IMG/VR virus record: IMGVR_UViG_3300015607_004069
Span: 117,659 to 181,658 of that record
Length of the DNA stretch: 64,000 bases
Strand: one strand, 5' to 3'
Origin: a virus
Taxonomy: Duplodnaviria > Caudoviricetes
In this document: piece after piece, positions 52,220-64,000 of the stretch
Numbering within the stretch: the first letter of the stretch is position 1
How the letters are laid out: the number at the start of each line of letters is the position of its first letter
Translations under genes and position numbers: made by a program
Notes under the pieces: generated by a model
Seen by the model: only the letters and a program-made list of their open reading frames with translations
Database searches by the model: none
Told to the model about the DNA's origin: nothing

Positions 52220-53536
52220 TTACTTGATAGTGGCAGCTATCGATTTCGTCTTAGGATCGGCCAAGAACATCTCCTGAAAATCAGAATACCGACTCTTGCT
52301 TCCTTCAAGATCGTACTCCTTGTTGGCGAGGAAAGTCCCGACCAGACCCTGCATGCGTCGCTGACCTTCAATGTTCGTCCAGTGAGTGCCGACCTCAGTC
52401 ATGAAATTCAGCAGATCATAGACAGAGCAGGCAGTCGGCAGAACCTGCTTGCGACGAGTAGACAAGGCATCCAGATTGGCGATGCCATAAGCCTTAGTCA
52501 TGTCACCAAGCAATTCACGGTATCGGCGAAGCACAGGGCTGGTAATAGGGTTGTACTCACCGACAGCCACATTACCATCATTCGTACTGGTTACTTCCGT
52601 GGTGACTTCTGTCCCATCAGGCAATTCGATGAAGCCCTTATTATGCATGGTGATAAGAGCCTGATAGACCTGCTGGGCCTCATTGATCGATGCCCACGAC
52701 TGACCGGCCTTTGTGAAGCGATCCCTGATGATGTCATAGCCCTCATCATCATTAAAGCTCTCCATAGCACGACCAACCGCTTCCACATAGTCACGAGACT
52801 TATTGAGATTCAGACTGGACTTGAAAGTCTTAGTCAGACCAACACTAAGGTTGGTACAGACCTGACGCAACATTGCCAGATAGACAGCAGGAGAGCCATA
52901 GCCATCCACCGGGATATCCAGTACATATCGACCGAGGAACTTATCCCCATTGATGTCGAAGTCATTGTTGGCTCGTGGCATAGCCAGAACTCGGACCACA
53001 CCACGCGAGTAAGTGATGTCATGGATGTCATTCAACATCATGTCAGCACTGACCTGTGATGCATGACCAAAAGCACCTTCCATGGCAATTCGGTCACTTC
53101 CAGCATTCTGAGTAGTGCTGACGCGAGCACTTCTTTGAACTTGCTTGTTAGTGCGACCATCCGTATGGAAATCTGCTTTGAAGCTATCAATGTTGATGCC
53201 GCCATCCTTCAAGGCGTTCTCTATGTCGGCAACATCGGGCAATTCCCATCGCGAGTTGCACAGGGAGAGTAGGGTAGGGGTGTCGGTGGTTTCATCGATA
53301 GTGACCTGAATGACATCGCCCTTGTCGCTACGCTCCTTGATGCGTGAGAAGACCTCATGATGGTCGAAATAGTCGAAGAATCGACCGCTGATGCCATATC
53401 GGCTGTACAGACTTGTGAAGAATCGATCGTCTGGCTTGATGGCCTGATCGAACAGGGTGAAGTTGAGGTCTTTATCGACCTTGATATCACCAAGAGCGCA
53501 AGTTTCTCGTCGCAGGCGAACGTCTGACAGTCTCAT
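52220..53536 (-). CDS. DUF932-like phage protein
   Basis: DGYGSP...LRQVCTN and C-terminal SVYDLLNFMTE..TH....QRRMQ..VG pattern. Confidence 0.6.
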   Translation of the reverse strand: MRLSDVRLRRETCALGDIKVDKDLNFTLFDQAIKPDDRFFTSLYSRYGISGRFFDYFDHHEVFSRIKERSDKGDVIQVTIDETTDTPTLLSLCNSRWELPDVADIENALKDGGINIDSFKADFHTDGRTNKQVQRSARVSTTQNAGSDRIAMEGAFGHASQVSADMMLNDIHDITYSRGVVRVLAMPRANNDFDINGDKFLGRYVLDIPVDGYGSPAVYLAMLRQVCTNLSVGLTKTFKSSLNLNKSRDYVEAVGRAMESFNDDEGYDIIRDRFTKAGQSWASINEAQQVYQALITMHNKGFIELPDGTEVTTEVTSTNDGNVAVGEYNPITSPVLRRYRELLGDMTKAYGIANLDALSTRRKQVLPTACSVYDLLNFMTEVGTHWTNIEGQRRMQGLVGTFLANKEYDLEGSKSRYSDFQEMFLADPKTKSIAATIK

Positions 53537-53677: not shown

Positions 53678-54868
53678 CTAGAACTTCCTTGCTGTACGCT
53701 CAGACTTGCGTTTGTGCAGCTTCTCTTCGATTTCAGAGACTGGCATGATAACCCTAGCCGCCAAATCCTGTACCATCTTAGTAGAGACAGCATCGACATT
53801 ACCATTGGCTTCAATAGACCGCCATTCCTTCTCCACTCGGACATACTGACCGGCAGGAGAAGCATACTTCATGAAGCACCAACCCTTCTCCGCTTGCACG
53901 ATTTGCTTCCGAGGGAATAGAGGACTCTTCCTGAGCACTCGACCGCCCATCTGAATCGAAATACCCTTACAAGACGAACGGAGAAACACGGTCTTCAAAT
54001 CGGGATCGTTATATCCCTCAGTCAACGCCAGACACCCCACCAGAACCTGCCACTTGCCAGCCTTGAATTCAACCAGCTGGTCAATTCGCTTGAATGGACA
54101 CTTCTCCACTAATTCAGCCCGTATCCCATTCTTGCGAAGGCGTTTGACCACCTTCGTACACTCCTCTATAGTATGGAAGAACATTACAGACCGACCCCAG
54201 CGATCAGGCGACTCACAATAGATGTCCACCGCCACCCGATTATTCCACTTATCCAGAGAATAATAATCGAACTGAGACAAATGGCCATCACGAATCAAAT
54301 GACGTGCAGAAGCATCACGAATCACCAATGAAAAACCAAGCTTCGCACCATCCTCACGCAAAGGCGTACCAGACAATCCCAGACCACGCAACCGCCCATT
54401 CGATGCTTCGCTCATCCGATTACGCAAAGTAATCGCAGAAGCAGCAGCCTGATGATGTGACTCATCGTCCACGTGATTGATAGGACGACCATTCAGATTC
54501 GATAAATCAGGCTCCCGCTCAAACATCGAAATTGGCACAAGACGCAACTTCAGATCGAACTTATTCTTCTCCTCAACCACCTGATCGAGCAGATTCCTAC
54601 GCATGGCAGACCACGACGTAGTCAACCCCGGCACTAACTCCTGCAATATGCTATTACCTATCAAAGCCATGATAGTCTTGCCAGCACCCACCGGAGCCTC
54701 GACATTGATGAACTTATGGTAATTGGGAGAAGAAGGATCGGCCATCCAAGCATGAACCATCTTACTGATAATTCGACGCTGGTAGTCACGTGTCTCGATC
54801 TTCGGATGACGACGCAGGAAATCGTCCACCACTGGCATAAATTCAACACCAAGATCAGTCAGAACCAT
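53678..54868 (-). CDS. superfamily 2 (DExH) helicase
   Basis: RDYQ, APVGAGKT, DESHH, LSGTP, LTEGYNDP, QMGGRVLR. Confidence 0.9.
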   Translation of the reverse strand: MVLTDLGVEFMPVVDDFLRRHPKIETRDYQRRIISKMVHAWMADPSSPNYHKFINVEAPVGAGKTIMALIGNSILQELVPGLTTSWSAMRRNLLDQVVEEKNKFDLKLRLVPISMFEREPDLSNLNGRPINHVDDESHHQAAASAITLRNRMSEASNGRLRGLGLSGTPLREDGAKLGFSLVIRDASARHLIRDGHLSQFDYYSLDKWNNRVAVDIYCESPDRWGRSVMFFHTIEECTKVVKRLRKNGIRAELVEKCPFKRIDQLVEFKAGKWQVLVGCLALTEGYNDPDLKTVFLRSSCKGISIQMGGRVLRKSPLFPRKQIVQAEKGWCFMKYASPAGQYVRVEKEWRSIEANGNVDAVSTKMVQDLAARVIMPVSEIEEKLHKRKSERTARKF

Positions 54869-55020
54869 TTGAACTCTCCCGTATGGTGATCAGAACAAAA
54901 GAATATATCACCAAGTACCCAAGAACTAATACCTTGACGACAAGCCAGAAAAATAAATTAATCCACAATCAGACCGTATCACCACCAAATAATATATCAA
55001 GCCATAACAGGCCAGAATAA

Positions 55021-55461
55021 CTAACTCCCATATATTATTCGATCCAGCTGCTCCCGCAAACGATCATGATAAGGCTTGCAAATCCGAACAGCCATTTCAC
55101 ACTGCTCGACATTCATCGACTCAATACGCACCACCTCACTCAGACCCATCTGGCCAGCCAGCCAGTTATAAGCAGCAGTTATGGCAACGCTCCTCGACAC
55201 CTTCTGACGCTCGACCTTTTGCTGCCATAGAAAATCAAAAACAATATGAACCGCCTTCCTCTTCCTCCGCAGAACAGGACCAGCAGCCGTGCCTAAAGCT
55301 ATGTCTGTATTCAGGCGACACCCCACATAAGCCTCACACTCACATCGCCAGAACCACAATTTGTCAGTGTGCCTTCCATAACCATAGATCGCATAACCTT
55401 TGACCTTCCAGCATTCCTTACCACATTCTTGACATAACACAGCCATTTGACTCTCCATCAT
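55021..55461 (-). CDS. DUF3268-like zinc-finger protein
   Basis: CQECG...WRCECEAYVGC...ALGT.A...LR..R...H..FD.LW. Confidence 0.75.
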   Translation of the reverse strand: MMESQMAVLCQECGKECWKVKGYAIYGYGRHTDKLWFWRCECEAYVGCRLNTDIALGTAAGPVLRRKRKAVHIVFDFLWQQKVERQKVSRSVAITAAYNWLAGQMGLSEVVRIESMNVEQCEMAVRICKPYHDRLREQLDRIIYGS

Positions 55462-55757
55462 GATTTGACTCGAAACTGTTCCGTCGAACCAATCGGATAG
55501 AGAATACCACTGCCAGTCACAGGGCAGGATACAAGATTCTTGGTGACCAAATGCGCTATCGTCTGCTCGATCAACGCCGACCGGCCAGAATGGCCCATAG
55601 TGCTAATCTTGTCTTGCGTTATGAGGTAATCGATAGAGCTATGTAAAGTCGGTCTGACGCAGTATGGTATATTAGCCGTTTCTGCATCCTTCAACCAGTC
55701 AGCACGAATCTGTTCAAGCCGTTTCAACAACTTACGATAAGTAATCTTAGGAAGCAT
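55458..55757 (-). CDS. hypothetical protein
   Basis: RBS aggag; ATGA overlap. Confidence 0.6.
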   Translation of the reverse strand: MLPKITYRKLLKRLEQIRADWLKDAETANIPYCVRPTLHSSIDYLITQDKISTMGHSGRSALIEQTIAHLVTKNLVSCPVTGSGILYPIGSTEQFRVKS

Positions 55758-55805
55758 TGATTCTCCTATTCGGGTTACCTATCTGTAGCACTAAGCCCTA
55801 TCAGA

Positions 55806-55910
55806 TTAATTGTCGCCATATAAAACGCCGACAATCCACAATATAAAACACGGCAATGCAATAAAACAAATTAAGTAAATAACCCACGTCGGAATCGTAA
55901 TAGTCGTCAG
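55806..55910 (-). CDS. possible 34-aa single-TM peptide with CTG start (absent from the ORF track)
   Basis: aggaaaccaa-CTG; TIPTWVIYLICFIALPCFILWIVGVLYGDN. Confidence 0.35.
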   Translation of the reverse strand: MTTITIPTWVIYLICFIALPCFILWIVGVLYGDN

Positions 55911-55918
55911 TTGGTTTC

Positions 55919-56158
55919 CTATTTCAAGAAAGTCGAAGCCTTAGCACAAGCATCATCCCACGATTTCAAACTGGCATCACGCCTATCACCAGCATACTTC
56001 ATATGCCCCAATGTCAATAGCTCACCACATAAAACTAGTTCTCGTATGACCGATTTCAATAGGGTCACTTGATCCTGCAATTCCTTGATCGTCGGCTGTG
56101 CTGTAATCACGCAGTTGCACTCATACCTTCCACAGTAATGGCACACACCTCCGCCCAT
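55919..56158 (-). CDS. hypothetical protein
   Basis: CxxC...CxC plus coiled coil. Confidence 0.55.
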   Translation of the reverse strand: MGGGVCHYCGRYECNCVITAQPTIKELQDQVTLLKSVIRELVLCGELLTLGHMKYAGDRRDASLKSWDDACAKASTFLK

Positions 56159-56186
56159 AACACACCTGCCTAATGATCGATGGTTA

Positions 56187-56990
56187 TTAAATAGAACTAA
56201 GGCTGCACTTTTTCTTTCTGGCCTTATGCCTCAGACCGTAATAGACACCAACTGTCACTGCCGTTATACCGACCATCCAGTGTGCACCGACTTCAGGAAC
56301 AGCCAACTGAATTGAATCAATAGCCAAATCACCACCAAGTAAACCATCAGTATAACCAGCAGAGAAACTAAGAGCGTCAATATCCGCCCAGTCTGGTGAG
56401 CCAATAGCAACAAAATCAGCCTTGGCAATTGACAGCAGCACTTCCGACTGATCCGACACTATAACGCCTTCAAAATAATTCGAGGCATTATTAGTATAGG
56501 CTCGGATAGTATATGTCCAATGACGATCATCGGCATTGATAACTGACCATTGAAAATTGAAGTTAGGCGATGAAAGCAATGAATTGAAATTGATATTGCC
56601 CAAATTAAAGCTGGTAGGATGAGAAACAATAGCATTTGTGTTAGGAGTGGCCCCATCACCTTGCCAGATGACCTGCCCGGCAGATCGTGTATTTGCCTGA
56701 TTGTTAATAGTAAATGCACTACTAGTGATCTTAGTAGCGTTATTGTAAAGAAGTCCGGGAGGATCACCAGCAGTGACCTCAACCAGATAATTTCCCACTA
56801 CACGATAATTACCAAGTACCGAAGAGCCGGGATTAAAACCACCCCATACACCATTGCCATCCAGCATCGGATCAGCAACAGTGCCATTCAACACACCAAA
56901 ATCATCAATCGTAAAAGAATTGATCAACTGAGCCTGCAGAACAGGCAAAAAGAAAAACACCGACACCAGAACAGCAGACAACCTAATCAT
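56187..56990 (-). CDS. secreted protein with PEP-CTERM-like sorting signal
   Basis: signal peptide ending LQA; C-terminus AVPEV + TM helix + RHKARKK. Confidence 0.75.
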   Translation of the reverse strand: MIRLSAVLVSVFFFLPVLQAQLINSFTIDDFGVLNGTVADPMLDGNGVWGGFNPGSSVLGNYRVVGNYLVEVTAGDPPGLLYNNATKITSSAFTINNQANTRSAGQVIWQGDGATPNTNAIVSHPTSFNLGNINFNSLLSSPNFNFQWSVINADDRHWTYTIRAYTNNASNYFEGVIVSDQSEVLLSIAKADFVAIGSPDWADIDALSFSAGYTDGLLGGDLAIDSIQLAVPEVGAHWMVGITAVTVGVYYGLRHKARKKKCSLSSI

Positions 56991-57295
56991 AACATCACCA
57001 TAAGAACGAGACTGTTATCACCACCATAGTGACAACTCATAACTGTTGTAATACGATCCTCACATTTATTAATTTATAATTTCACAATTATCTGGTATAT
57101 TCCTTCGTTCCAATACGCTCCAAGCACTCAGCTGCTCGCTTGGCTGCTCTTTTCTTCCCCGCTCTAATTCGATTCGCCATCTTCTTACGAATATCGCAAC
57201 GGGTTGTACTCTTAGACCAAGCCCGATGTCTACTATTGCGTAGCCAATGTGGCGATCTAGAATCATACTTGTCCGTAAGACATCTAAGAGACGAG

Positions 57296-57395
57296 AAAAA
57301 ACTGCGATCAGTCAACAGTATGAGAGCCGGTAGAATTCTCAGACTATTACTAGGACGATGCATCGCAGTAACCTCTAGGACTGTTTTGTTGTAGA
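57296..57395 (-). ncRNA. candidate small RNA or attenuator: 69-nt interrupted hairpin with U-tract
   Basis: actgcgat/atcgcagt, gtc/gac, aatagt/actgtt, tgaga/tctca nested stems (57301-57369) then a T-run; GTATT at 57405-57409. Confidence 0.45.
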
Positions 57396-57444
57396 ATTGA
57401 ATGTAATACCACATCAGTACATTTTAATTAGCAACAGCCCAAAC

Positions 57445-57744
57445 TCAACTGCCCAATTTCGCAGATGAATCACTGACATATCCATTCAAAGCCATTGCCA
57501 TTTCTAACCTCTTCAACTTCTCCTCTAACTCATAGATCCTGCCGCTCTCATTGTTGAATTGCCCGTCAATCAAAAACGGCGCAAAACCAGTCAGCAGAAA
57601 GAATGATACAGCAGGCCATGCAATACCGAAAACCATGCTGACCAGAACATCAAAAACGTCAAGACGCTTTTGAACAAACCACATACGAACACACAGACCG
57701 ATCACAAAACCAAAGTAACCAGCGAAATACAGAACATCGTTCAT
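57445..57744 (-). CDS. two-TM membrane protein
   Basis: RBS ggag; two hydrophobic segments. Confidence 0.6.
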   Translation of the reverse strand: MNDVLYFAGYFGFVIGLCVRMWFVQKRLDVFDVLVSMVFGIAWPAVSFFLLTGFAPFLIDGQFNNESGRIYELEEKLKRLEMAMALNGYVSDSSAKLGS

Positions 57745-57784
57745 GGCGGGCGACTCCATAAAGTTAAATGATACTAAGAACCGA

Positions 57785-58285
57785 TCAATCTCTCCAGTAA
57801 TCAACAGCAAGCTTCTTCTCTGCTTCAATCAGCGACTCTTTCATCAACCTATCATACTGATAAGTCGGCAAAATCATCCCATCACATGCAAAACAGCGAC
57901 GATCCTGACGAGCAAAAGACAGAAACCACTTTACTGACTCGTTTTCCACGTCATCCTTATGATATTTGGCAGCACATTCCGCAGAACAAAACAAATCGGC
58001 CCATCTACCATCAGCATACCTTACCAGATAGAACCGCTCAAGATGATTCGGCACCTCCATCTGATGACACCAGCCTATAATCGAATTGCCCTTAGGCACA
58101 TTATAACTGAAATTATTGCCAACCAGCCACACATTAGGCCAGCGCACAGACGTGTGCACCCGGCTACCATTCCATGGCTTGGCCAACAAAACAAAAACAG
58201 GAACCCCATCACTAGGAATATCAGTCGTTTGCCATTCTACTTGCATGTTCGTCTCCATTATGTGATAAAGGATGATACCGAACAC
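57785..58285 (-). CDS. hypothetical protein, DUF551-like N-terminus plus Zn finger
   Basis: EWQTTDIPSDGVPVFV...IIGWC; CxxxC...CxxC; true start probably downstream. Confidence 0.55.
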   Translation of the reverse strand: MFGIILYHIMETNMQVEWQTTDIPSDGVPVFVLLAKPWNGSRVHTSVRWPNVWLVGNNFSYNVPKGNSIIGWCHQMEVPNHLERFYLVRYADGRWADLFCSAECAAKYHKDDVENESVKWFLSFARQDRRCFACDGMILPTYQYDRLMKESLIEAEKKLAVDYWRD

Positions 58286-58310
58286 GCCTTGATAAATTCA
58301 AGCAAATACG

Positions 58311-58341
58311 AAAAAGGCCGATACCCAAAAAGTATCGGCCT
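58311..58341 (-). terminator. intrinsic terminator
   Basis: aggccgatac/gtatcggcct stem then a T-run on the minus strand. Confidence 0.75.
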
Positions 58342-58347
58342 AATCCA

Positions 58348-58575
58348 CTACGCCAATTCGACCTTGACAGAAAGCTTGATCACAGCTTCAGGATCAGCAT
58401 TAGGCACACCAACCACCCAATTCTGACCATCCCACGAAGCAAAAAGATCACGACCAGCTTCATCAACAGCATGAAACTTTTCAGTGTTGGCCAGCATCGC
58501 AAACAATGCCTTTTCAAAAGCACGACGTGCCGCCACACCGAAATCATCAACATTTACTGGCTCTTCAGGCATCAC
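58348..58575 (-). CDS. hypothetical protein
   Basis: RBS ggag; followed by a terminator. Confidence 0.55.
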   Translation of the reverse strand: MMPEEPVNVDDFGVAARRAFEKALFAMLANTEKFHAVDEAGRDLFASWDGQNWVVGVPNADPEAVIKLSVKVELA

Positions 58576-58632
58576 TCAACTCCAGAGAAACAGGATATCC
58601 GGTAATACTGCACCTTGTCTATTGCAGCTGTA

Positions 58633-58905
58633 TTATGCCAACTTTGGTTTGGCTTTCGCCATAGTCTTGGCAAACTCGAAATACTCCCCACTACCATCAA
58701 CAACAGTAAAACGCTCCGGAAACTTGGCAAACTCCAAAACAGCATGGTCGTCAGAATAATGCCCTCCACGCACAGCAGTAGCAACATCCCGCCCAGCAAA
58801 CACAATAGTAATATTGCTGACCGGAACCTTCTTACCCCCACGACGATCAACCCCATGGACACACCGAACATCCACCCGACTCGCCACAGGCTTAAGCACT
58901 TCCAT
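58633..58905 (-). CDS. hypothetical protein
   Basis: RBS aggag. Confidence 0.6.
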   Translation of the reverse strand: MEVLKPVASRVDVRCVHGVDRRGGKKVPVSNITIVFAGRDVATAVRGGHYSDDHAVLEFAKFPERFTVVDGSGEYFEFAKTMAKAKPKLA

Positions 58906-58938
58906 AATAACTCCTAGACAAAAGAAAACAGACTACCC

Positions 58939-59415
58939 CTAGCCCTGATTGCTATCAAACACCTTAGCGGTATTCTGAAATATCCTCACCAGCTGAGGAC
59001 TGATACCAAAACGATTGGCATTCACCTCAATCGACTTAAGAATATTCCCATTATTGTGCCTTTCCCCCGCTGCCTTCCAATCACAGAACATCTCCAATAG
59101 GTCAAGCAAATTCATATCATTGATCCCATTAGGCCAATGCTCCGGATGATGCGAATTCTTGGCATAATGATGCTCCAACGCTGGCCACATCGACTGCCTG
59201 AAACCCTCATACTCACTACTGCCATAAGTCGATGCAGCCAACTTAGGAGTAAACTCAGTAAACAACTCCACTTCCGGGGATTCAAGCTTAGACTGATCGT
59301 GCTGCTCACCACGCCTTATCAAATCAATCGCCATCAAATTGAGTAGATTTCGCACCCTTTCAATATGCCTGAACGTAACAAAATTAGTCGCCTGCTGTTC
59401 AATCGTAAGACTCAT
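58939..59415 (-). CDS. DUF5662-family HD-like protein
   Basis: HI..V...HDQSKL...ALEHHYAKNSHHPEHW...MNLLDLLEMFCDWKAA. Confidence 0.8.
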   Translation of the reverse strand: MSLTIEQQATNFVTFRHIERVRNLLNLMAIDLIRRGEQHDQSKLESPEVELFTEFTPKLAASTYGSSEYEGFRQSMWPALEHHYAKNSHHPEHWPNGINDMNLLDLLEMFCDWKAAGERHNNGNILKSIEVNANRFGISPQLVRIFQNTAKVFDSNQG

Positions 59416-59517
59416 ATGGTTTCTCCGGTTAGTCACTTCTCACCATCATTTCGTACCAGCTATCACAATCCGCCAATGCTTTAGTGGTTGGTTTGATTTC
59501 ACACCGCTCTTTTGTAG

Positions 59518-59787
59518 CTAAACCATGATTCCACTAACGTCTATGCGGTTGCATCGGTAACCATCTTCCGTGAGCGAATAATAATCAGGATCGCCCCTGA
59601 AGGTCTCCCGCTGAATCAGGCATTCCTTTTCTAACGCTGCCAATGCCGCATCAAGAGACTCATCCTCTTGTTCTTCCAACCATTCTGCAATTGACTTCTT
59701 ACGGCACACTTGGCCGATACTTCCAACACAGTTCGCAACAGATTGAAGAACTGCAACCTCATATTTAGATAGCTTCTCACCAATCAT
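59518..59787 (-). CDS. winged-helix-like small protein
   Basis: AALAALEKECLIQR...YYSLTEDG; RBS aaggagagg. Confidence 0.55.
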   Translation of the reverse strand: MIGEKLSKYEVAVLQSVANCVGSIGQVCRKKSIAEWLEEQEDESLDAALAALEKECLIQRETFRGDPDYYSLTEDGYRCNRIDVSGIMV

Positions 59788-59840
59788 CGATACCTCTCCT
59801 TAAAGTAAACAACCCCATCACAATACTACACACCCAAATC

Positions 59841-60119
59841 CTACTTCATAACCTCCAGATTAGCCGTAAGCTCAGACATAGCCTCCGCAACCAACTTCCG
59901 ATATGACATATGAAAATGAGAAGACCAATCCTTCGGACGTAAAGCCATAGGATTACGCAAAAACTCCCTCACACAACAGACCGCATCACAAAAACCATTA
60001 TACGCCCAAGAATCCTCATCCGGCTCATCAGGCAACGCCGTACCACAACAAGCACAAATAGAATCATCAGGATTATGAGACTCAATATCACTATCATGCC
60101 AACCACGTCTAGCAGTCAT
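59841..60119 (-). CDS. hypothetical zinc-finger protein
   Basis: CACCG...FCDAVC; RBS ggag. Confidence 0.55.
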   Translation of the reverse strand: MTARRGWHDSDIESHNPDDSICACCGTALPDEPDEDSWAYNGFCDAVCCVREFLRNPMALRPKDWSSHFHMSYRKLVAEAMSELTANLEVMK

Positions 60120-60164
60120 CGCAAACTCCAGATTAAACACCCGACACACCCAATAATGCCACCA

Positions 60165-60194
60165 CCCCACACCCCATTAATCCCCCACCCCCCC
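60165..60194 (-). other. G-quadruplex-forming motif (G7-T-G5-ATTAAT-G4-TGT-G4)
   Basis: four G-runs of at least 4 with loops of 1-6 nt in an intergenic gap. Confidence 0.6.
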
Positions 60195-60195
60195 A

Positions 60196-60903
60196 TCAAT
60201 CCACAATAGAATAAACCACCACACAATTACCCACAACATGCATAATCTTCTGAGGAAACAAAACATCAACAAAATACTTAGTAAAAGAAGTCGAACACAC
60301 CTTAAACTGCATCCCATCATCAATAAACTTATACTCCAACCGAATATGAACCCTATTCAACATCTCCTCATTCGCCACAATAATCCCACCACCATGCGCA
60401 AACACCCCATTATGAACCCTCTTCTCAATCAAATCTCGCGGCCCACTAACCTTCGACCCAGCCATCAAACACTTATTAACCTCCCACTGCACATCACGCA
60501 CAACCTTACCATCACTACGCTCACCCAACCTACTAAAAACAGACAATAAATAAGACTCCACCGAACCAGAAAAACCACCAGTGATCTTCGCTACCGCACC
60601 ATTATCAAGAGGCGACAAATACCCCACCCCCACACCAAACACCGTACCATCAGGATTAAGCTCCAAAGACTCCTTTGACCTCTCACCAATAAACGTAGCC
60701 CCCACATCCTTAGAAAACGCCAAATGCTGACGCTGACGCACCGCATCATTAAAAGACACCAAACAATCCGAAACATACCGAGCCAAAACAAAATCAGGAG
60801 TATCACAAAGACTATCAATAGAATACTCATTAAGCAACCTCGACAAATCCCTCATAAAACCATCATGATTATGAAACGACGGACTCGGCTTGACCTGCCC
60901 CAT
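60196..60903 (-). CDS. hypothetical protein; C-half weakly resembles a T4 gp23 capsid fragment
   Basis: N-terminal LLN.YS.D...DTPDFVLA.Y phage module; DVQWEVNKCL, GIIVAN, YFVD. Confidence 0.55.
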   Translation of the reverse strand: MGQVKPSPSFHNHDGFMRDLSRLLNEYSIDSLCDTPDFVLARYVSDCLVSFNDAVRQRQHLAFSKDVGATFIGERSKESLELNPDGTVFGVGVGYLSPLDNGAVAKITGGFSGSVESYLLSVFSRLGERSDGKVVRDVQWEVNKCLMAGSKVSGPRDLIEKRVHNGVFAHGGGIIVANEEMLNRVHIRLEYKFIDDGMQFKVCSTSFTKYFVDVLFPQKIMHVVGNCVVVYSIVD

Positions 60904-60953
60904 AACATACTCCCCATAAGAAATGTCAACCAACAATACCTAAACAAACACCA

Positions 60954-61226
60954 CTAACTCCCAGATTTAACCCTACCATCAAAATCCCGCATCATCCTCA
61001 ACCAACCCCTAGCCGTGACAGTATAAACCGTATCAGCATGCGGCGCGTACGGCGACGAACCACCACTAACCGGATCAACCCGACAATAACTCACCATATG
61101 CAAACTACCCTGATCATAATAAGCCATCATAACCACAAACTCAACACCCGGATTATTACCAACAATAACATCACCAGTAGCTGGCCTATCAACAGTCTTC
61201 TCCACAACACACCTCCTATAGAACAA
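60954..61226 (-). CDS. hypothetical protein
   Basis: RBS aggagg before an internal GTG; tiles the operon. Confidence 0.5.
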   Translation of the reverse strand: MFYRRCVVEKTVDRPATGDVIVGNNPGVEFVVMMAYYDQGSLHMVSYCRVDPVSGGSSPYAPHADTVYTVTARGWLRMMRDFDGRVKSGS

Positions 61227-61237
61227 CCAAAAAACAA

Positions 61238-61474
61238 CTAATACTCAGGATAGACCTGATCCAATAAAATAACCGCCTCAGACGGCTCCTCAGGCAAATC
61301 AACCACCAAACTCACCACCCTCAACTGAGGATAAGCAACAACAGACATACTCTCTGGCCTTTCCCTTGACTTCTCTTGGATATCAGACACCACAACACTC
61401 CCTCTAGCCCACAACACCACCACATACCCAAAAGAATGACAAGAAAACAACTCAACCACCCATCCGCCGACCAC
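61238..61474 (-). CDS. hypothetical protein
   Basis: tiles the minus operon. Confidence 0.4.
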   Translation of the reverse strand: MVGGWVVELFSCHSFGYVVVLWARGSVVVSDIQEKSRERPESMSVVAYPQLRVVSLVVDLPEEPSEAVILLDQVYPEY

Positions 61475-61757
61475 ACACCTTCACTATCTCCTCCAAATCA
61501 CCCTCCAACTCCACAATCCTCTCACGCTTATCAGCAATAACATCACGTAAAGACTCAACCCTCAACTCATAAAGCCGACAATCACTCCTCGCCACCCACC
61601 ACATCAACAACGCAAACAACATCAAACAAGTCGACACAATAGCCCACACCACCACAAAAATCACATCCATACCCATCACACACCATCCCCTCAACACAAA
61701 GGATAACGAAAACAACCCATCTAGACTCAATACCCAATAGTCGCAGAGGGACTCCAA
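61452..61757 (-). CDS. membrane-anchored coiled-coil protein
   Basis: TM helix then heptad segment; start probably at MGMDV. Confidence 0.5.
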   Translation of the reverse strand: MESLCDYWVLSLDGLFSLSFVLRGWCVMGMDVIFVVVWAIVSTCLMLFALLMWWVARSDCRLYELRVESLRDVIADKRERIVELEGDLEEIVKVCGRRMGG

Positions 61758-62558
61758 CTACTTAGAAGACATATCGACCTCCAATTTGACATGCCTAATT
61801 CGATGGCATATAGCACACAACAAATCACACTTATCAAGCTCTTTTTTCATCGACTCAATCGATCGCAATCGAAGTTTTGACCAATCAAATTCCTTAGTCT
61901 CAGGATCACGATGATGAAAATCAAAAGCAGCCCAATGCTTATCATAGCCGCAGTCAACACAACATCCTCCAAGATAAGCAATGGCCCAAAGCTTCCTATT
62001 CAACCACCTCTGACATTGTGATTTATATAAACACCCTTTACACATATGTTTCAATCTCGTTCCACTCGCAAAATCACCAACTGGTTTTGGCGAATTGCAT
62101 TCAACACATATCCTAAAACTGTTTTCATCAACACCAAGAATCTTAAGATTAATCGATCTAACTTCAGCAGACTGCTTCGACTGATAATCTGATCTGCATT
62201 TATTTGTACAATAATGATTAATATGACCATTAGCTGTATGTTTTTGAAATTGCTTGCTAGTTTTCAAGAATGTCTTATTACATCCACTACACAAAACCTC
62301 GACTTTATGTGAATAATTAGGATGATCCTTACGAGATTTCTGACATTTCTGCTTACCACACGTAACACGCCTAATATTCTTATTATTACTATCGACCCTG
62401 ATAAACAACTCACCACAACCGGGACAATTAGCTTCAGTACGCACCTCAAATCTATTAGGATTCACACAACCAGTCGAACAAAATCGCCTGACTTTACCCT
62501 TTGAACGATAATAAAATTCTCTCCCACATTGTACATTTTGGCATTTTGTAATTGGCAT
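61758..62558 (-). CDS. HNH endonuclease with N-terminal Zn-finger repeats
   Basis: YLGGCCVDCGY...FDFHHRDP...KCDLLCAICHRIRH; several CxxC...CxxxC units. Confidence 0.85.
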   Translation of the reverse strand: MPITKCQNVQCGREFYYRSKGKVRRFCSTGCVNPNRFEVRTEANCPGCGELFIRVDSNNKNIRRVTCGKQKCQKSRKDHPNYSHKVEVLCSGCNKTFLKTSKQFQKHTANGHINHYCTNKCRSDYQSKQSAEVRSINLKILGVDENSFRICVECNSPKPVGDFASGTRLKHMCKGCLYKSQCQRWLNRKLWAIAYLGGCCVDCGYDKHWAAFDFHHRDPETKEFDWSKLRLRSIESMKKELDKCDLLCAICHRIRHVKLEVDMSSK

Positions 62559-62577
62559 GCCCTACCTTTGACTTAAA

Positions 62578-62650
62578 TACCCCTGGCAGGAATCGAACCC
62601 ACTTAATCGCTCGTTAGAACCGAGGCGCACAGCCATTATACCACAGGGGC
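62578..62650 (-). tRNA. tRNA-Arg(UCU)
   Basis: acceptor GCCCCTG/CAGGGGT, D arm GTAT/GTGC, anticodon stem CTCG/CGAG with loop GT-TCT-AA, T loop TTCGATT; no encoded CCA. Confidence 0.75.
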
Positions 62651-62667
62651 ATCACAACAAACCAACA

Positions 62668-63078
62668 CTACCTACCAGCCCGATCAACCTCACCCCTAAC
62701 AAAAGACTCATTAATCTTATCCTGAACATGACGAGGAATCTCAAAAACCTCACAAGAAACAACCGACCCACCCACCTCCGCCCTCGCCCTATCCCTAATA
62801 AAACCATCCACAACATCCACCTCCGCCAACAAATCCCTCAACCTACCCAAAAGCTCAACCTGCTCCACCGACTGCCCACCAACCCCCACAGGAGGCACCA
62901 AACCACGCAAACGCAACCGCCAAATCAAATCCCAACTCATACCACCAGACTCCGACCCATACAACCTCAAAAACTCCTCACTCGCCCCCGACCCAACATA
63001 ATCAACAACCTCCCCACACCCAACACAACACCAACGCCCACCCACAAAAGACACAGAAACATGAGAACAAACCATCAC
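62668..63078 (-). CDS. hypothetical protein (V/G-biased)
   Basis: CxH...CxxC; RBS ggggagg; composition follows the skew. Confidence 0.5.
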   Translation of the reverse strand: MMVCSHVSVSFVGGRWCCVGCGEVVDYVGSGASEEFLRLYGSESGGMSWDLIWRLRLRGLVPPVGVGGQSVEQVELLGRLRDLLAEVDVVDGFIRDRARAEVGGSVVSCEVFEIPRHVQDKINESFVRGEVDRAGR

Positions 63079-63128
63079 ACACCCTCCCCAAAAACCACAA
63101 AGAAAGAGACACGAACCACCCCCACAAA

Positions 63129-63509
63129 CTAACGTTCCAAATTAGTCAACTCACCCCGCATAGGTGCCCACGCATCCTCCACCACAAAAAACAACCTCGC
63201 CCCATCATAACTATGAGCATACCACCTCTCCGCCCACAACCCACCACAACCAACACCAACCTTCTTCGGATCAAGCAACAACTCAGTCAACAACCTCCGA
63301 GCATCCTCCCTCAAACCCTCCACCGTCAAATCCCGCCAACCAGACAACAACCCACTCTCACTCCTCCTCCACGACAACTTCTTCACCCTCAAAACAAACT
63401 CAAAATCAAAACGACCCAACACCAACTCAATCACCTCCAAATAATGAGCAGACAACTTCCGCCGCTTCCGCAAAGACCTCTTAACACTCATAAAAGAACC
63501 AGCACCCAT
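63129..63509 (-). CDS. hypothetical protein
   Basis: RBS aggag; IE.VL..FDFE.V...GCGGL.A pattern. Confidence 0.55.
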   Translation of the reverse strand: MGAGSFMSVKRSLRKRRKLSAHYLEVIELVLGRFDFEFVLRVKKLSWRRSESGLLSGWRDLTVEGLREDARRLLTELLLDPKKVGVGCGGLWAERWYAHSYDGARLFFVVEDAWAPMRGELTNLER

Positions 63510-63607
63510 AACACACTCCTAATTTGAATCCACAAAGAAAGAGGCACGAACCGACCCGTCAGTCCAACATCAGAAAGATAAAGAACAATCAGCCCATGCC
63601 CCTTCCC

Positions 63608-63997
63608 TCACAGACTCCCCAAAAAACCAACAACCAAATCAACACAATCCCCAGCCAAACACACCACCCTCCCACCCTCCAAAGCCACACCACCCTCCAC
63701 ACCAGAAACACGACTCACCACCACAAACGTATCACCAACCACAAAATCACCACCCCGCACACACGACCCATCCCCAACCCCAACACACAAACCAACAGGA
63801 ACAGACTGCGCCAAAAACTCCACAATACGCTCCCCACCACTCACAGCCCGAACCACCCCACGACCCAAACACAAAACCTCCGAACCAACAGGAAAAGAAC
63901 ACAACAACCCCTCCAACCTCACCAACTCCCTCTCCAAAACCACACGAACATCACACCCAACCTCCAAACCCTCCACAACCCCACGCAACCCAGACAA
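63608..63997 (-). CDS. hypothetical protein (V/G-biased, may be 5'-truncated by the window end)
   Basis: open to the window end; same strand as neighbours. Confidence 0.4.
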   Translation of the reverse strand: MSGLRGVVEGLEVGCDVRVVLERELVRLEGLLCSFPVGSEVLCLGRGVVRAVSGGERIVEFLAQSVPVGLCVGVGDGSCVRGGDFVVGDTFVVVSRVSGVEGGVALEGGRVVCLAGDCVDLVVGFLGSL

Positions 63998-64000
63998 AAA

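Follow-up and report, generated by a model that had tools for sequence, protein, structure and literature searches.

In vertebrate mitochondrial DNA (mtDNA) the heavy and light strands differ in composition along a gradient in single-stranded time, and in cellular genomes strand skew at silent sites typically amounts to 55-65%; at bacterial origins GC skew reportedly turns from negative to positive, as described by Lobry and Grigoriev. Other cases to be considered are the ColE1 Pol I leading-strand footprint, the R-loop-primed T4 origins oriF and oriG, and the T5 first-step-transfer region and T7 leading end, where first-injected DNA carries early and anti-restriction genes. Replication strand asymmetry, with a skew switch at the origin, has been reviewed (PMC3269016), and studies of huge phages use ordinary genome-wide GC skew (PMC7162821). 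In bacterial polyketide synthase clusters, GRINS consist of duplicated copies that are >80% identical and tied to gene conversion; GC and TA skews are correlated in GRINS windows (r = 0.70 vs 0.09), and the cause is unknown (PMC8256042). Here we describe a phage region in which strand asymmetry is nearly complete at silent sites. It occupies the end of a 64,000-nt stretch (the window) that forms the final 64 kb of the 181,658-bp IMG/VR contig IMGVR_UViG_3300015607_004069, classed as 'linear' and rated ~51% complete by CheckV. We find that this end forms the left arm of a substitution field that is strand-specific and bipolar and has at its centre a ~0.5-kb conserved non-coding element located just past the contig end. 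On each side, the strand running 5' to 3' away from the element is depleted of A and C at nearly all sites free to change and in part at constrained ones, and the proteins have been recoded as a result.

Within the window, A+C on the + strand, measured per 300 nt, is 0.50 at 52 kb, 0.55-0.65 at 54-59.8 kb, 0.69-0.75 at 59.8-61.9 kb and 0.77-0.87 at 62.8-64.0 kb, and positions 62668-64000 have a GC skew of -0.69 and an AT skew of +0.54. In the remainder of the 181.7-kb contig, + strand A+C stays within 0.37-0.59 in every 2-kb bin. The first-pass annotation had described a graded rise to extreme A+C near the end, and the rise toward the end is indeed present; it is stepwise rather than smooth, with a jump at 59841, and is interrupted by an island holding an HNH gene and a tRNA-Arg. 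From 52.2 kb to the window end all plausible genes lie on the G+T-rich minus strand, as the same annotation had it from 58.3 kb onward, and coding-strand G+T at codon position 3 is 0.56 in 52220-53536, 0.60-0.82 at 53.7-59.8 kb and 0.86-1.00 from 59841 to the end. The nine minus-strand genes in this last section reach 0.961 over 1128 codons; 495 of 499 codons end in G/T in the four genes closest to the window end, as do 137 of 137 in one saturated-zone gene, and the saturated genes stop only at TAG or TGA. Across 163 genes of the contig the baseline is 0.449 +/- 0.074, which leaves the saturated genes >7 standard deviations outside. Their G+T content follows the order codon position 3 > position 1 > position 2, which shows the open reading frames (ORFs) to be genuine and in frame, with protein constraint filtering a directional pressure. 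The reshaping of the proteins described in the first-pass annotation was borne out: V rises to 14.7% (from 6.3%), G to 10.2 (6.6), C to 3.8 (1.5) and W to 2.1 (1.4), T falls to 1.7% from 6.1%, N, K, I and Q are reduced, and G+V+C+W+F+L together make up 45% vs 28%. Measured from the point where the sign of the skew reverses (the flip), silent-site saturation in the left arm extends for ~4.8 kb and baseline is reached by ~12 kb. Superimposed on this is a slow contig-wide drift at silent sites, followed by genes of both strands, from 0.26-0.35 at the far end through ~0.5 at 130-160 kb to 0.78 and then 0.99, which fits a genome-wide organisation around the flip point.

The first-pass annotation treated the window end as a special end of the genome, but it is a contig end only, and contigs of the same phage from five samples or assemblies continue past window position 64000. 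These contigs, designated by L-numbers (L002, L008, L020 etc.), were located by exact-protein look-up in ENA (SPAdes, MEGAHIT), JGI and Logan assemblies of other samples and are 99.4-100% identical to the window phage; L002 and L008 cross the flip, and window position 64000 corresponds to L008 1561 and L002 9510. The phage genome is estimated at ~350 kb, about half of it outside the searched sequence, and the contig-wide negative results given below cover the 181.7-kb contig. The flip falls outside the window, at window-equivalent 64305-64868 (= L008 1866-2429 = L002 9205-8642), about 0.5-0.9 kb past the contig end. The last gene of the saturated block begins ~0.3 kb past the window end, and a ~0.5-kb non-coding gap precedes the gene. 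The A+C-rich top strand stops near window-equivalent 64509, a two-segment fit places the change point at 64695 (L008 2256), and the cumulative curve peaks at 64868. A+C at codon position 3 of the top strand drops from 0.98-1.00 towards the window to 0.18-0.37 immediately across the flip, and top-strand GC skew passes from negative to positive at this one point.

Beyond the flip lies the right arm, where three successive gene blocks, oriented -, + and -, have a top-strand position-3 A+C of 0.04-0.43 (G+T 0.57-0.96) over a distance of at least 27 kb, with the exception of one balanced five-gene island. In block 1, on the same strand as the window genes, 63-82% of codons end in A/C; in block 2, made up of plus-strand genes, 70-96% end in G/T; and in block 3, on the minus strand, A/C endings prevail again. 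Since one DNA strand is G+T-rich in blocks of either orientation, the asymmetry is a property of the strand rather than of the gene, and transcription-coupled mutation and mRNA-level selection are thereby removed as its main cause. Co-oriented right-arm genes are slightly more skewed than head-on ones. Sequence comparison did not join the right arm to the left end of the contig.

Read outward from the window end, the gap at the flip opens with an A/C-rich leader whose three GTATT promoter-like motifs lie on the minus strand; a GC-rich patch of ~55 nt follows, then an AT-rich one of ~75 nt, and finally repeats. The repeats comprise 2.5 copies of a 33-nt unit at 41-nt spacing, with an imperfect inverted repeat between copies. 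A sister phage, represented by a 129-kb contig (Logan DRR438477) whose helicase is 84% identical, carries a 16-nt indel that breaks a 56-aa ORF called across the gap; as the repeat spacing is not a multiple of 3 either, the gap is non-coding. The non-coding core, which contains paired GACAAGAATTTCACGCAG motifs, the AT-rich patch and a conserved GATTGTATT, is ~85-90% identical in the window phage and the sister, while 147 of 334 identical helicase codons (44%) differ silently between them, so the element is under purifying selection. No other close copy of the repeat motif exists in the 181-kb contig. A scan of IMG/VR with the 17-nt flip motif returned 75 single matches, about what chance gives for 15 specified bases at the size of the collection; the core has no match in Rfam, and as single-stranded DNA it folds no more stably than shuffled sequences (z = +1.1).

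Absence of the skew from related phages, which according to the first-pass annotation would speak against it, was not what we found. The sister shares the flip, located at this conserved element in a 680-bp gap between co-oriented genes; position-3 values are 0.15-0.23 on one flank and 0.94-1.00 on the opposite one, falling to ~0.5 within 5.5 kb. The helicase gene occurs at different distances from a flip, and its silent G+T varies accordingly: it is 0.76 at 9.8 kb in the window phage, 0.51 at ~16 kb in the sister and 0.21 in a 56% relative. Synonymous helicase differences between window phage and sister are strongly directional, with 105 keto in the window phage and amino in the sister vs 25 the reverse (z about 7), and those in the next gene outward (52220..53536) are symmetric (65 vs 63), from which it follows that the helicase skew was imposed by position after the lineages split. 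By class the helicase differences are 81 vs 22 transitions, 18 vs 2 T/A and 6 vs 1 G/C, at saturated sites. Closer to the flip, saturated-zone orthologues in the sister are 72-81% identical in amino acids, and 21 of their 22 silent differences are G<->T; both lineages are therefore pinned at G/T and the bias is actively maintained. Transversion divergence in the saturated zone is ~10% of identical codons, similar to the helicase's 13%, which argues against general hypermutation. The 56% relative, a 36-kb contig (L017, JGI 3300072492), is more complex. Its top-strand position-3 G+T runs from 0.10-0.27 to 0.87 at ~4.8 kb, back to 0.2-0.35, and to 0.88-0.96 from ~19.3 kb, and the coding strand of its helicase is A/C-rich (0.79). 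There are thus several low-to-high flips with gradual decay within 20 kb, some of them away from clear non-coding gaps, and we conclude from these patches that the clade has the process but no single fixed site. Together these observations establish a skew that belongs to the DNA strand, is anchored at a point, conserved and dependent on position, and is actively maintained.

Of the readings considered we favour, at a probability of roughly 0.45, the one in which the element marks the site where DNA synthesis starts and moves outward, as at a replication origin. The anchor would then be an origin and the chemistry deamination or mispairing. Synthesis would start at the element and proceed outward in both directions; the displaced strand could stay single-stranded near the start and be subject to C>T and A>G deamination, or the nascent leading strand could keep uncorrected G.T mispairs, and either route would enrich the same strand in G+T. 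One published study states that G/T errors far outnumber C/A errors (PMC6159521). The effect would weaken with distance and act in place on any resident gene, recent inserts being still balanced, and transcript-primed initiation of the kind known from T4 oriF/oriG or ColE1 would be in keeping with a promoter where the saturated arm begins. Several observations argue for such an initiation site. The sign flips at a single non-coding point flanked by co-oriented genes, and both the negative-to-positive polarity of GC skew and the contig-wide drift point the same way; the sister's matching flip, the conserved core, the position dependence of the helicase and the maintenance by G<->T exchange would also be consistent with it. 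In one sample (ERZ22302045) the flip-bearing 27.6-kb contig NODE_1687 has a k-mer coverage of 99.0 vs 60.2 for the 144.9-kb main contig NODE_36, a contig-level ratio of 1.64x. Such an excess is expected near an origin but is ambiguous, as it may reflect a higher copy number close to an origin, terminal redundancy or sharing of the segment by strains that co-occur. Among the models put forward in the first-pass annotation, a strand-specific, copying-linked accumulation of C>T and A>G comes closest to the evidence, the skew being strand-based, point-anchored, graded and transition-dominated. That model foresaw neither an anchor in a non-coding element past the window end nor the sign reversal there, and deamination itself we only infer.

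Several points weigh against an initiation site. The element has just 2.5 repeats, its flanking genes are ORFans by Pfam and PHROG searches, and no initiator gene or known origin motif was identified. Classical replication skew is approximately constant per replichore; here the left arm falls from 1.0 to baseline within ~12 kb and the right arm is long and patchy (0.57-0.96), and a decay of this kind calls for an extra local process. The several flips within 20 kb of L017 would not be explained by one origin per genome. The argument from polarity hinges on which mutational step dominates, and a fixed DNA end predicts identical polarity. Finally, the single-nucleotide polymorphisms (SNPs) among strain variants, 86 sites only, run 6 vs 1 in the skew direction in the left arm (clustered, and polarised by minority rule) and 16 vs 18 in the right arm, a spectrum too thin for an ongoing mutational bias to be read from it.

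The main rival, which we regard as unlikely, takes the element for a fixed DNA end or concatemer junction (a pac or cos site, or a short terminal repeat); in each infection cycle the few kilobases adjoining the ends would undergo strand displacement, or resection and new synthesis, so that on each side the same strand is exposed or remade one extra time per generation and drifts to G+T. End-initiated displacement or re-synthesis gives the observed polarity if G.T mispairs dominate, as the error excess in that study would suggest (PMC6159521); if simple 5'-3' resection left the surviving strand to be deaminated, the sign would be the opposite. The kilobase-scale plateau and decay fit the lengths of resection or displacement better than a whole-replichore skew does, the repeats and AT-rich patch would suit a terminase site, and the 1.64x coverage could be terminal redundancy. 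Two long contigs end nearby, the window contig 0.5 kb and the sister's 129-kb contig ~6 kb away; yet five assemblies cross the element with no repeat signature, although a terminal repeat or concatemer junction would also allow continuity. Profile searches of the half-genome found no Terminase_6N, so none is linked to the site, and no family A/B DNA polymerase or dCMP-type deaminase. Nor do the several flips in the 56% relative fit two ends per genome.

A second rival, which we consider improbable, is locally biased mismatch processing or gene conversion of the GRINS type, possibly through a NucS/EndoMS-type nuclease; a recombination or nick site would set the domains in which G/T is fixed on one strand, independently of where replication starts. 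In 150-nt windows of the left arm, mean absolute GC and TA skews are 0.55 and 0.39 over 4.7 kb, compared with 0.23 and 0.25 in the right arm and 0.13 and 0.14 in control DNA; GRINS are delimited by values >0.15 over >500 bp. The two skews correlate at r = 0.68 in the left arm and 0.82 in the whole field vs 0.07 in control DNA. As in GRINS, skew is strongest at codon position 3 and the amino-acid shifts are alike, with G, V, C and W up and T, P, H and Q down. The contig also encodes, outside the window (G000:C1:68169-68471), a 250-aa open frame that matches Pfam NucS_C at 50 bits, above cut-off. NucS is reported to cut only G/T, G/G and T/T mismatches (PMC6159521). Amino<->keto changes would pass through keto.keto or amino.amino mismatches, a split that matches NucS, and a connection between NucS and the skew is only a lead. 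The transversion classes of the helicase are biased, too, and the sister lineages patchy; against this, the transversion bias may be a matter of multiple hits at saturated sites, and no known mechanism gives NucS a strand and position preference. Above all, a duplicated copy or gene-conversion partner is missing: blastn of the field against the 181.7-kb contig and 20 kb of the right arm returned self-matches only, and nothing that would correspond to copies of >80% identity.

Two further explanations are very hard to reconcile with the data. If the non-template strand of a strong early operon transcribed from a GTATT promoter were exposed, possibly in R-loops, and deaminated, one would understand why the saturated block starts at a conserved promoter-like motif and why its genes are co-oriented for 6 kb with no strong terminator, and transcription may indeed add to the skew, given the slight excess in co-oriented right-arm genes. 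The co-oriented genes across the flip carry the opposite skew, however (63-82% A/C at position 3 of the coding strand), and one right-arm DNA strand is G+T-rich through all three blocks. As sole cause, transcription-coupled mutation is refuted, since the sign does not follow the coding strand, which favours A/C in blocks 1 and 3 but G/T in block 2 and the left arm. Selection on DNA or transcript, whether for a palindrome-free injected end, for a translocation preference or for C-poor, unstructured early mRNA proof against Rho and nucleases, has just as slender a chance. Palindromic 4-mers are ~5-fold rarer per kb in the saturated region than elsewhere, and its minus-strand transcript would be 7-9% C with few hairpins. 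Under synonymous-codon shuffling, though, the saturated genes hold 72 palindromic 4-mers vs 77.7 +/- 5.2 expected and 13 6-mers vs 17.6 +/- 2.8, so that the scarcity follows from composition alone and shows no depletion beyond protein sequence and codon usage; control genes are depleted (120 observed vs 149 +/- 8 for 4-mers, 23 vs 36 +/- 5 for 6-mers). The first-pass proposal of a first-injected, palindrome-free end gains no support from this codon-aware null or from the contigs that run through the site, and its alternative of a translocation preference finds no support and leaves the opposite-sign arm and the orientation independence unexplained. Orthologue skew is, moreover, set by distance from the flip and not by function. 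Selection at the mRNA level or against restriction was rejected as main cause because the skew ignores gene orientation and is mirrored at the flip. An assembly or sequencing artefact (a chimera or chemically converted reads), suggested by the extreme composition at a contig end and named in the first-pass annotation as grounds for dismissal, is refuted: the sequence recurs at 99.4-100% identity in ENA, JGI and Logan assemblies of other samples, and codon periodicity and conserved sister orthologues cannot arise artefactually.

The features of the left arm are listed below.

Features of the left arm in window coordinates, with the basis of each assignment or its composition.
Feature	Position	Strand	Basis or composition
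First baseline gene, outer limit of left arm ~11-12 kb from flip	52220..53536	-	position-3 G+T 0.56
Intermediate zone, left arm	53678..59787	-	position-3 G+T 0.60-0.82
SF2/ResIII helicase	53678-54868	-	position-3 G+T 0.76
Last strong intrinsic-terminator-like hairpin	58315..58341	-	12-bp stem, then T run
DUF5662 protein	58939-59436	-	Pfam E 7e-37; position-3 G+T 0.81
Saturated left arm	59841..64000	-	ORFans; coding-strand position-3 G+T 0.86-1.00
ORFan genes, saturated arm	59841-60170, 60196-60936, 60954-61226, 61238-61474	-	ORF calls
ORFan genes, saturated arm	61452-61757, 62668-63078, 63129-63509	-	ORF calls
HNH (homing-type) endonuclease gene	61758-62558	-	PHROG 2255, E 7.8e-32
tRNA-Arg (anticodon TCT), adjoins HNH gene, same balanced island	62577-62651	-	tRNA call
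133-aa gene, 3' part in window	63608-64000 (complete: L002 9501-9902)	-	ORF call

Pfam and PHROG searches assigned no function to the ORFans of the saturated arm. Within this zone the HNH gene forms a balanced island (position-3 G+T 0.72, overall A+C 0.55-0.60), and both the HNH/tRNA island and the five-gene island of the right arm fit the description of younger inserts that have still to acquire the skew, the HNH gene being read as a mobile one. The claim that hairpin terminators are lacking past about 58.3 kb held up: beyond the last strong one (58341-58315) the minus strand offers only weak candidates at chance level. The DUF5662 gene is the only one in the terminal 8 kb with DNA similarity to cultured phages (Bacillus phage Eldridge and a Mammaliicoccus phage); blastn of the last 8 kb against INPHARED gave this short match to Bacillus and Mammaliicoccus phages and no other, and the phage is therefore without a cultured relative. 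Exact-protein look-up did not find the DUF5662 protein in other assemblies of the phage, so the segment 58939-59436 varies among strains. The phage is present in more than 60 samples, and helicase homologues suggest Planctomycetota as its candidate host. With tblastn the helicase matched distant siphophage helicases only and its 438-aa neighbour nothing; a search of IMG/VR for related loci with two proteins returned nothing, and the homologues of a 246-aa skewed protein are near-identical copies only.

Assemblies L002, L003 and L004 stop at window 59941, 60085 and 60128, respectively, and in JGI sample 3300015608 the 105.7-kb main contig stops at about 60106, overlapping the L003 end by ~20 nt. 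SNPs with 2:2 haplotype splits are grouped at 60131-60202, adjoining a G-run at 60165-60194, and the step in position 3 lies at 59841. The region 59941-60202 looks like a strain-level recombination boundary. Elsewhere on the contig, outside the window, the 2-kb bin at 78001-80000 has a + strand A+C of 0.37 and an AT skew of -0.38 and contains two genes with position-3 G+T of 0.69-0.72, which makes it a local skew patch of smaller size. The right arm, hyperplastic and made up of ORFans, was assembled solely as contigs of <=28 kb. Contigs L008-L015 and L020-L023, 3-27 kb past the flip, are variants of 99.6-99.9% identity with whole-gene cassette swaps, examples being the HNH_3 and DUF551 genes of L011 and genes of 104/106 aa that replace one another. 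Among the ORFans, ~2.6-3.1 kb past the flip (L002 5888-6382), is a gene for a DMP19-like (DNA-mimic) protein (Pfam PF14300, E 5e-11), which may have an anti-restriction or host-takeover function.

A broader proposal, which we put forward only tentatively, is that huge phages have a hitherto undescribed process, anchored at non-coding elements that are conserved, which acts locally and converts amino to keto bases in a strand-specific way; it would continuously rewrite several kilobases into a two-letter silent code, ameliorate new genes and drive the evolution of accessory proteins. Candidates for such a conversion would be a long-lived displacement loop or a low-fidelity leading-strand start, plus NucS-type processing of keto.keto mismatches. 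If the flip marks a start of synthesis or a site of end processing, the footprint would be a sequence-only locator of such sites in uncultured huge phages. The force, mutational or of repair, overrides codon choice, reshapes proteins (valine doubled, threonine cut to a quarter) and hits any gene near the anchor, which is relevant to the fast evolution of phage accessory and early genes into ORFans. It also links phage skew to the unexplained bacterial GRINS, and a NucS specificity that matches the keto/amino split is a testable lead.

Our literature searches found no paper describing such a region in a phage, in agreement with the first-pass statement that none so skewed had been described, and to our knowledge two-letter silent sites at 96-100% exceed the strand asymmetry of cellular genomes or mitochondria. 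Known systems each share some of its traits. With the T5 and T7 ends it has in common small early-type ORFans in one orientation and a DMP19-like gene nearby, but those ends are not known to carry such skew and the phage field lacks palindrome avoidance beyond composition. ColE1 and oriF/oriG resemble it in a strand-specific effect that runs from a promoter or origin and decays over a few kilobases, and its saturated arm likewise starts at a conserved promoter-like motif; those cases, in contrast, are laboratory footprints or initiation mechanisms, and we know of none that leaves a two-letter composition on an evolutionary scale. Vertebrate mtDNA offers G+T and A+C strands, dominance of transitions, a gradient from an origin and reshaped proteins. 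There, however, one strand is affected genome-wide with no mirror flip, whereas the phage field is local, reverses its sign at the element and is more saturated at silent sites. The skew switch at origins is matched in its negative-to-positive change at one point, its independence of gene orientation and the G+T enrichment of the strand leading away; it differs in that phage silent sites reach 96-100% and one arm decays within 5-12 kb. GRINS share intense and positively correlated GC and TA skews, abrupt changes, the strongest effect at third positions, working encoded proteins, and enrichment of Gly, Val, Cys and Trp with depletion of Pro, Thr, His and Gln. Unlike them, the phage field is bipolar, has one conserved non-coding anchor and spans 10-40 kb of unrelated ORFans with no second copy. 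We class it as a known strand asymmetry in a new form, with the mechanisms set out above as its candidates.

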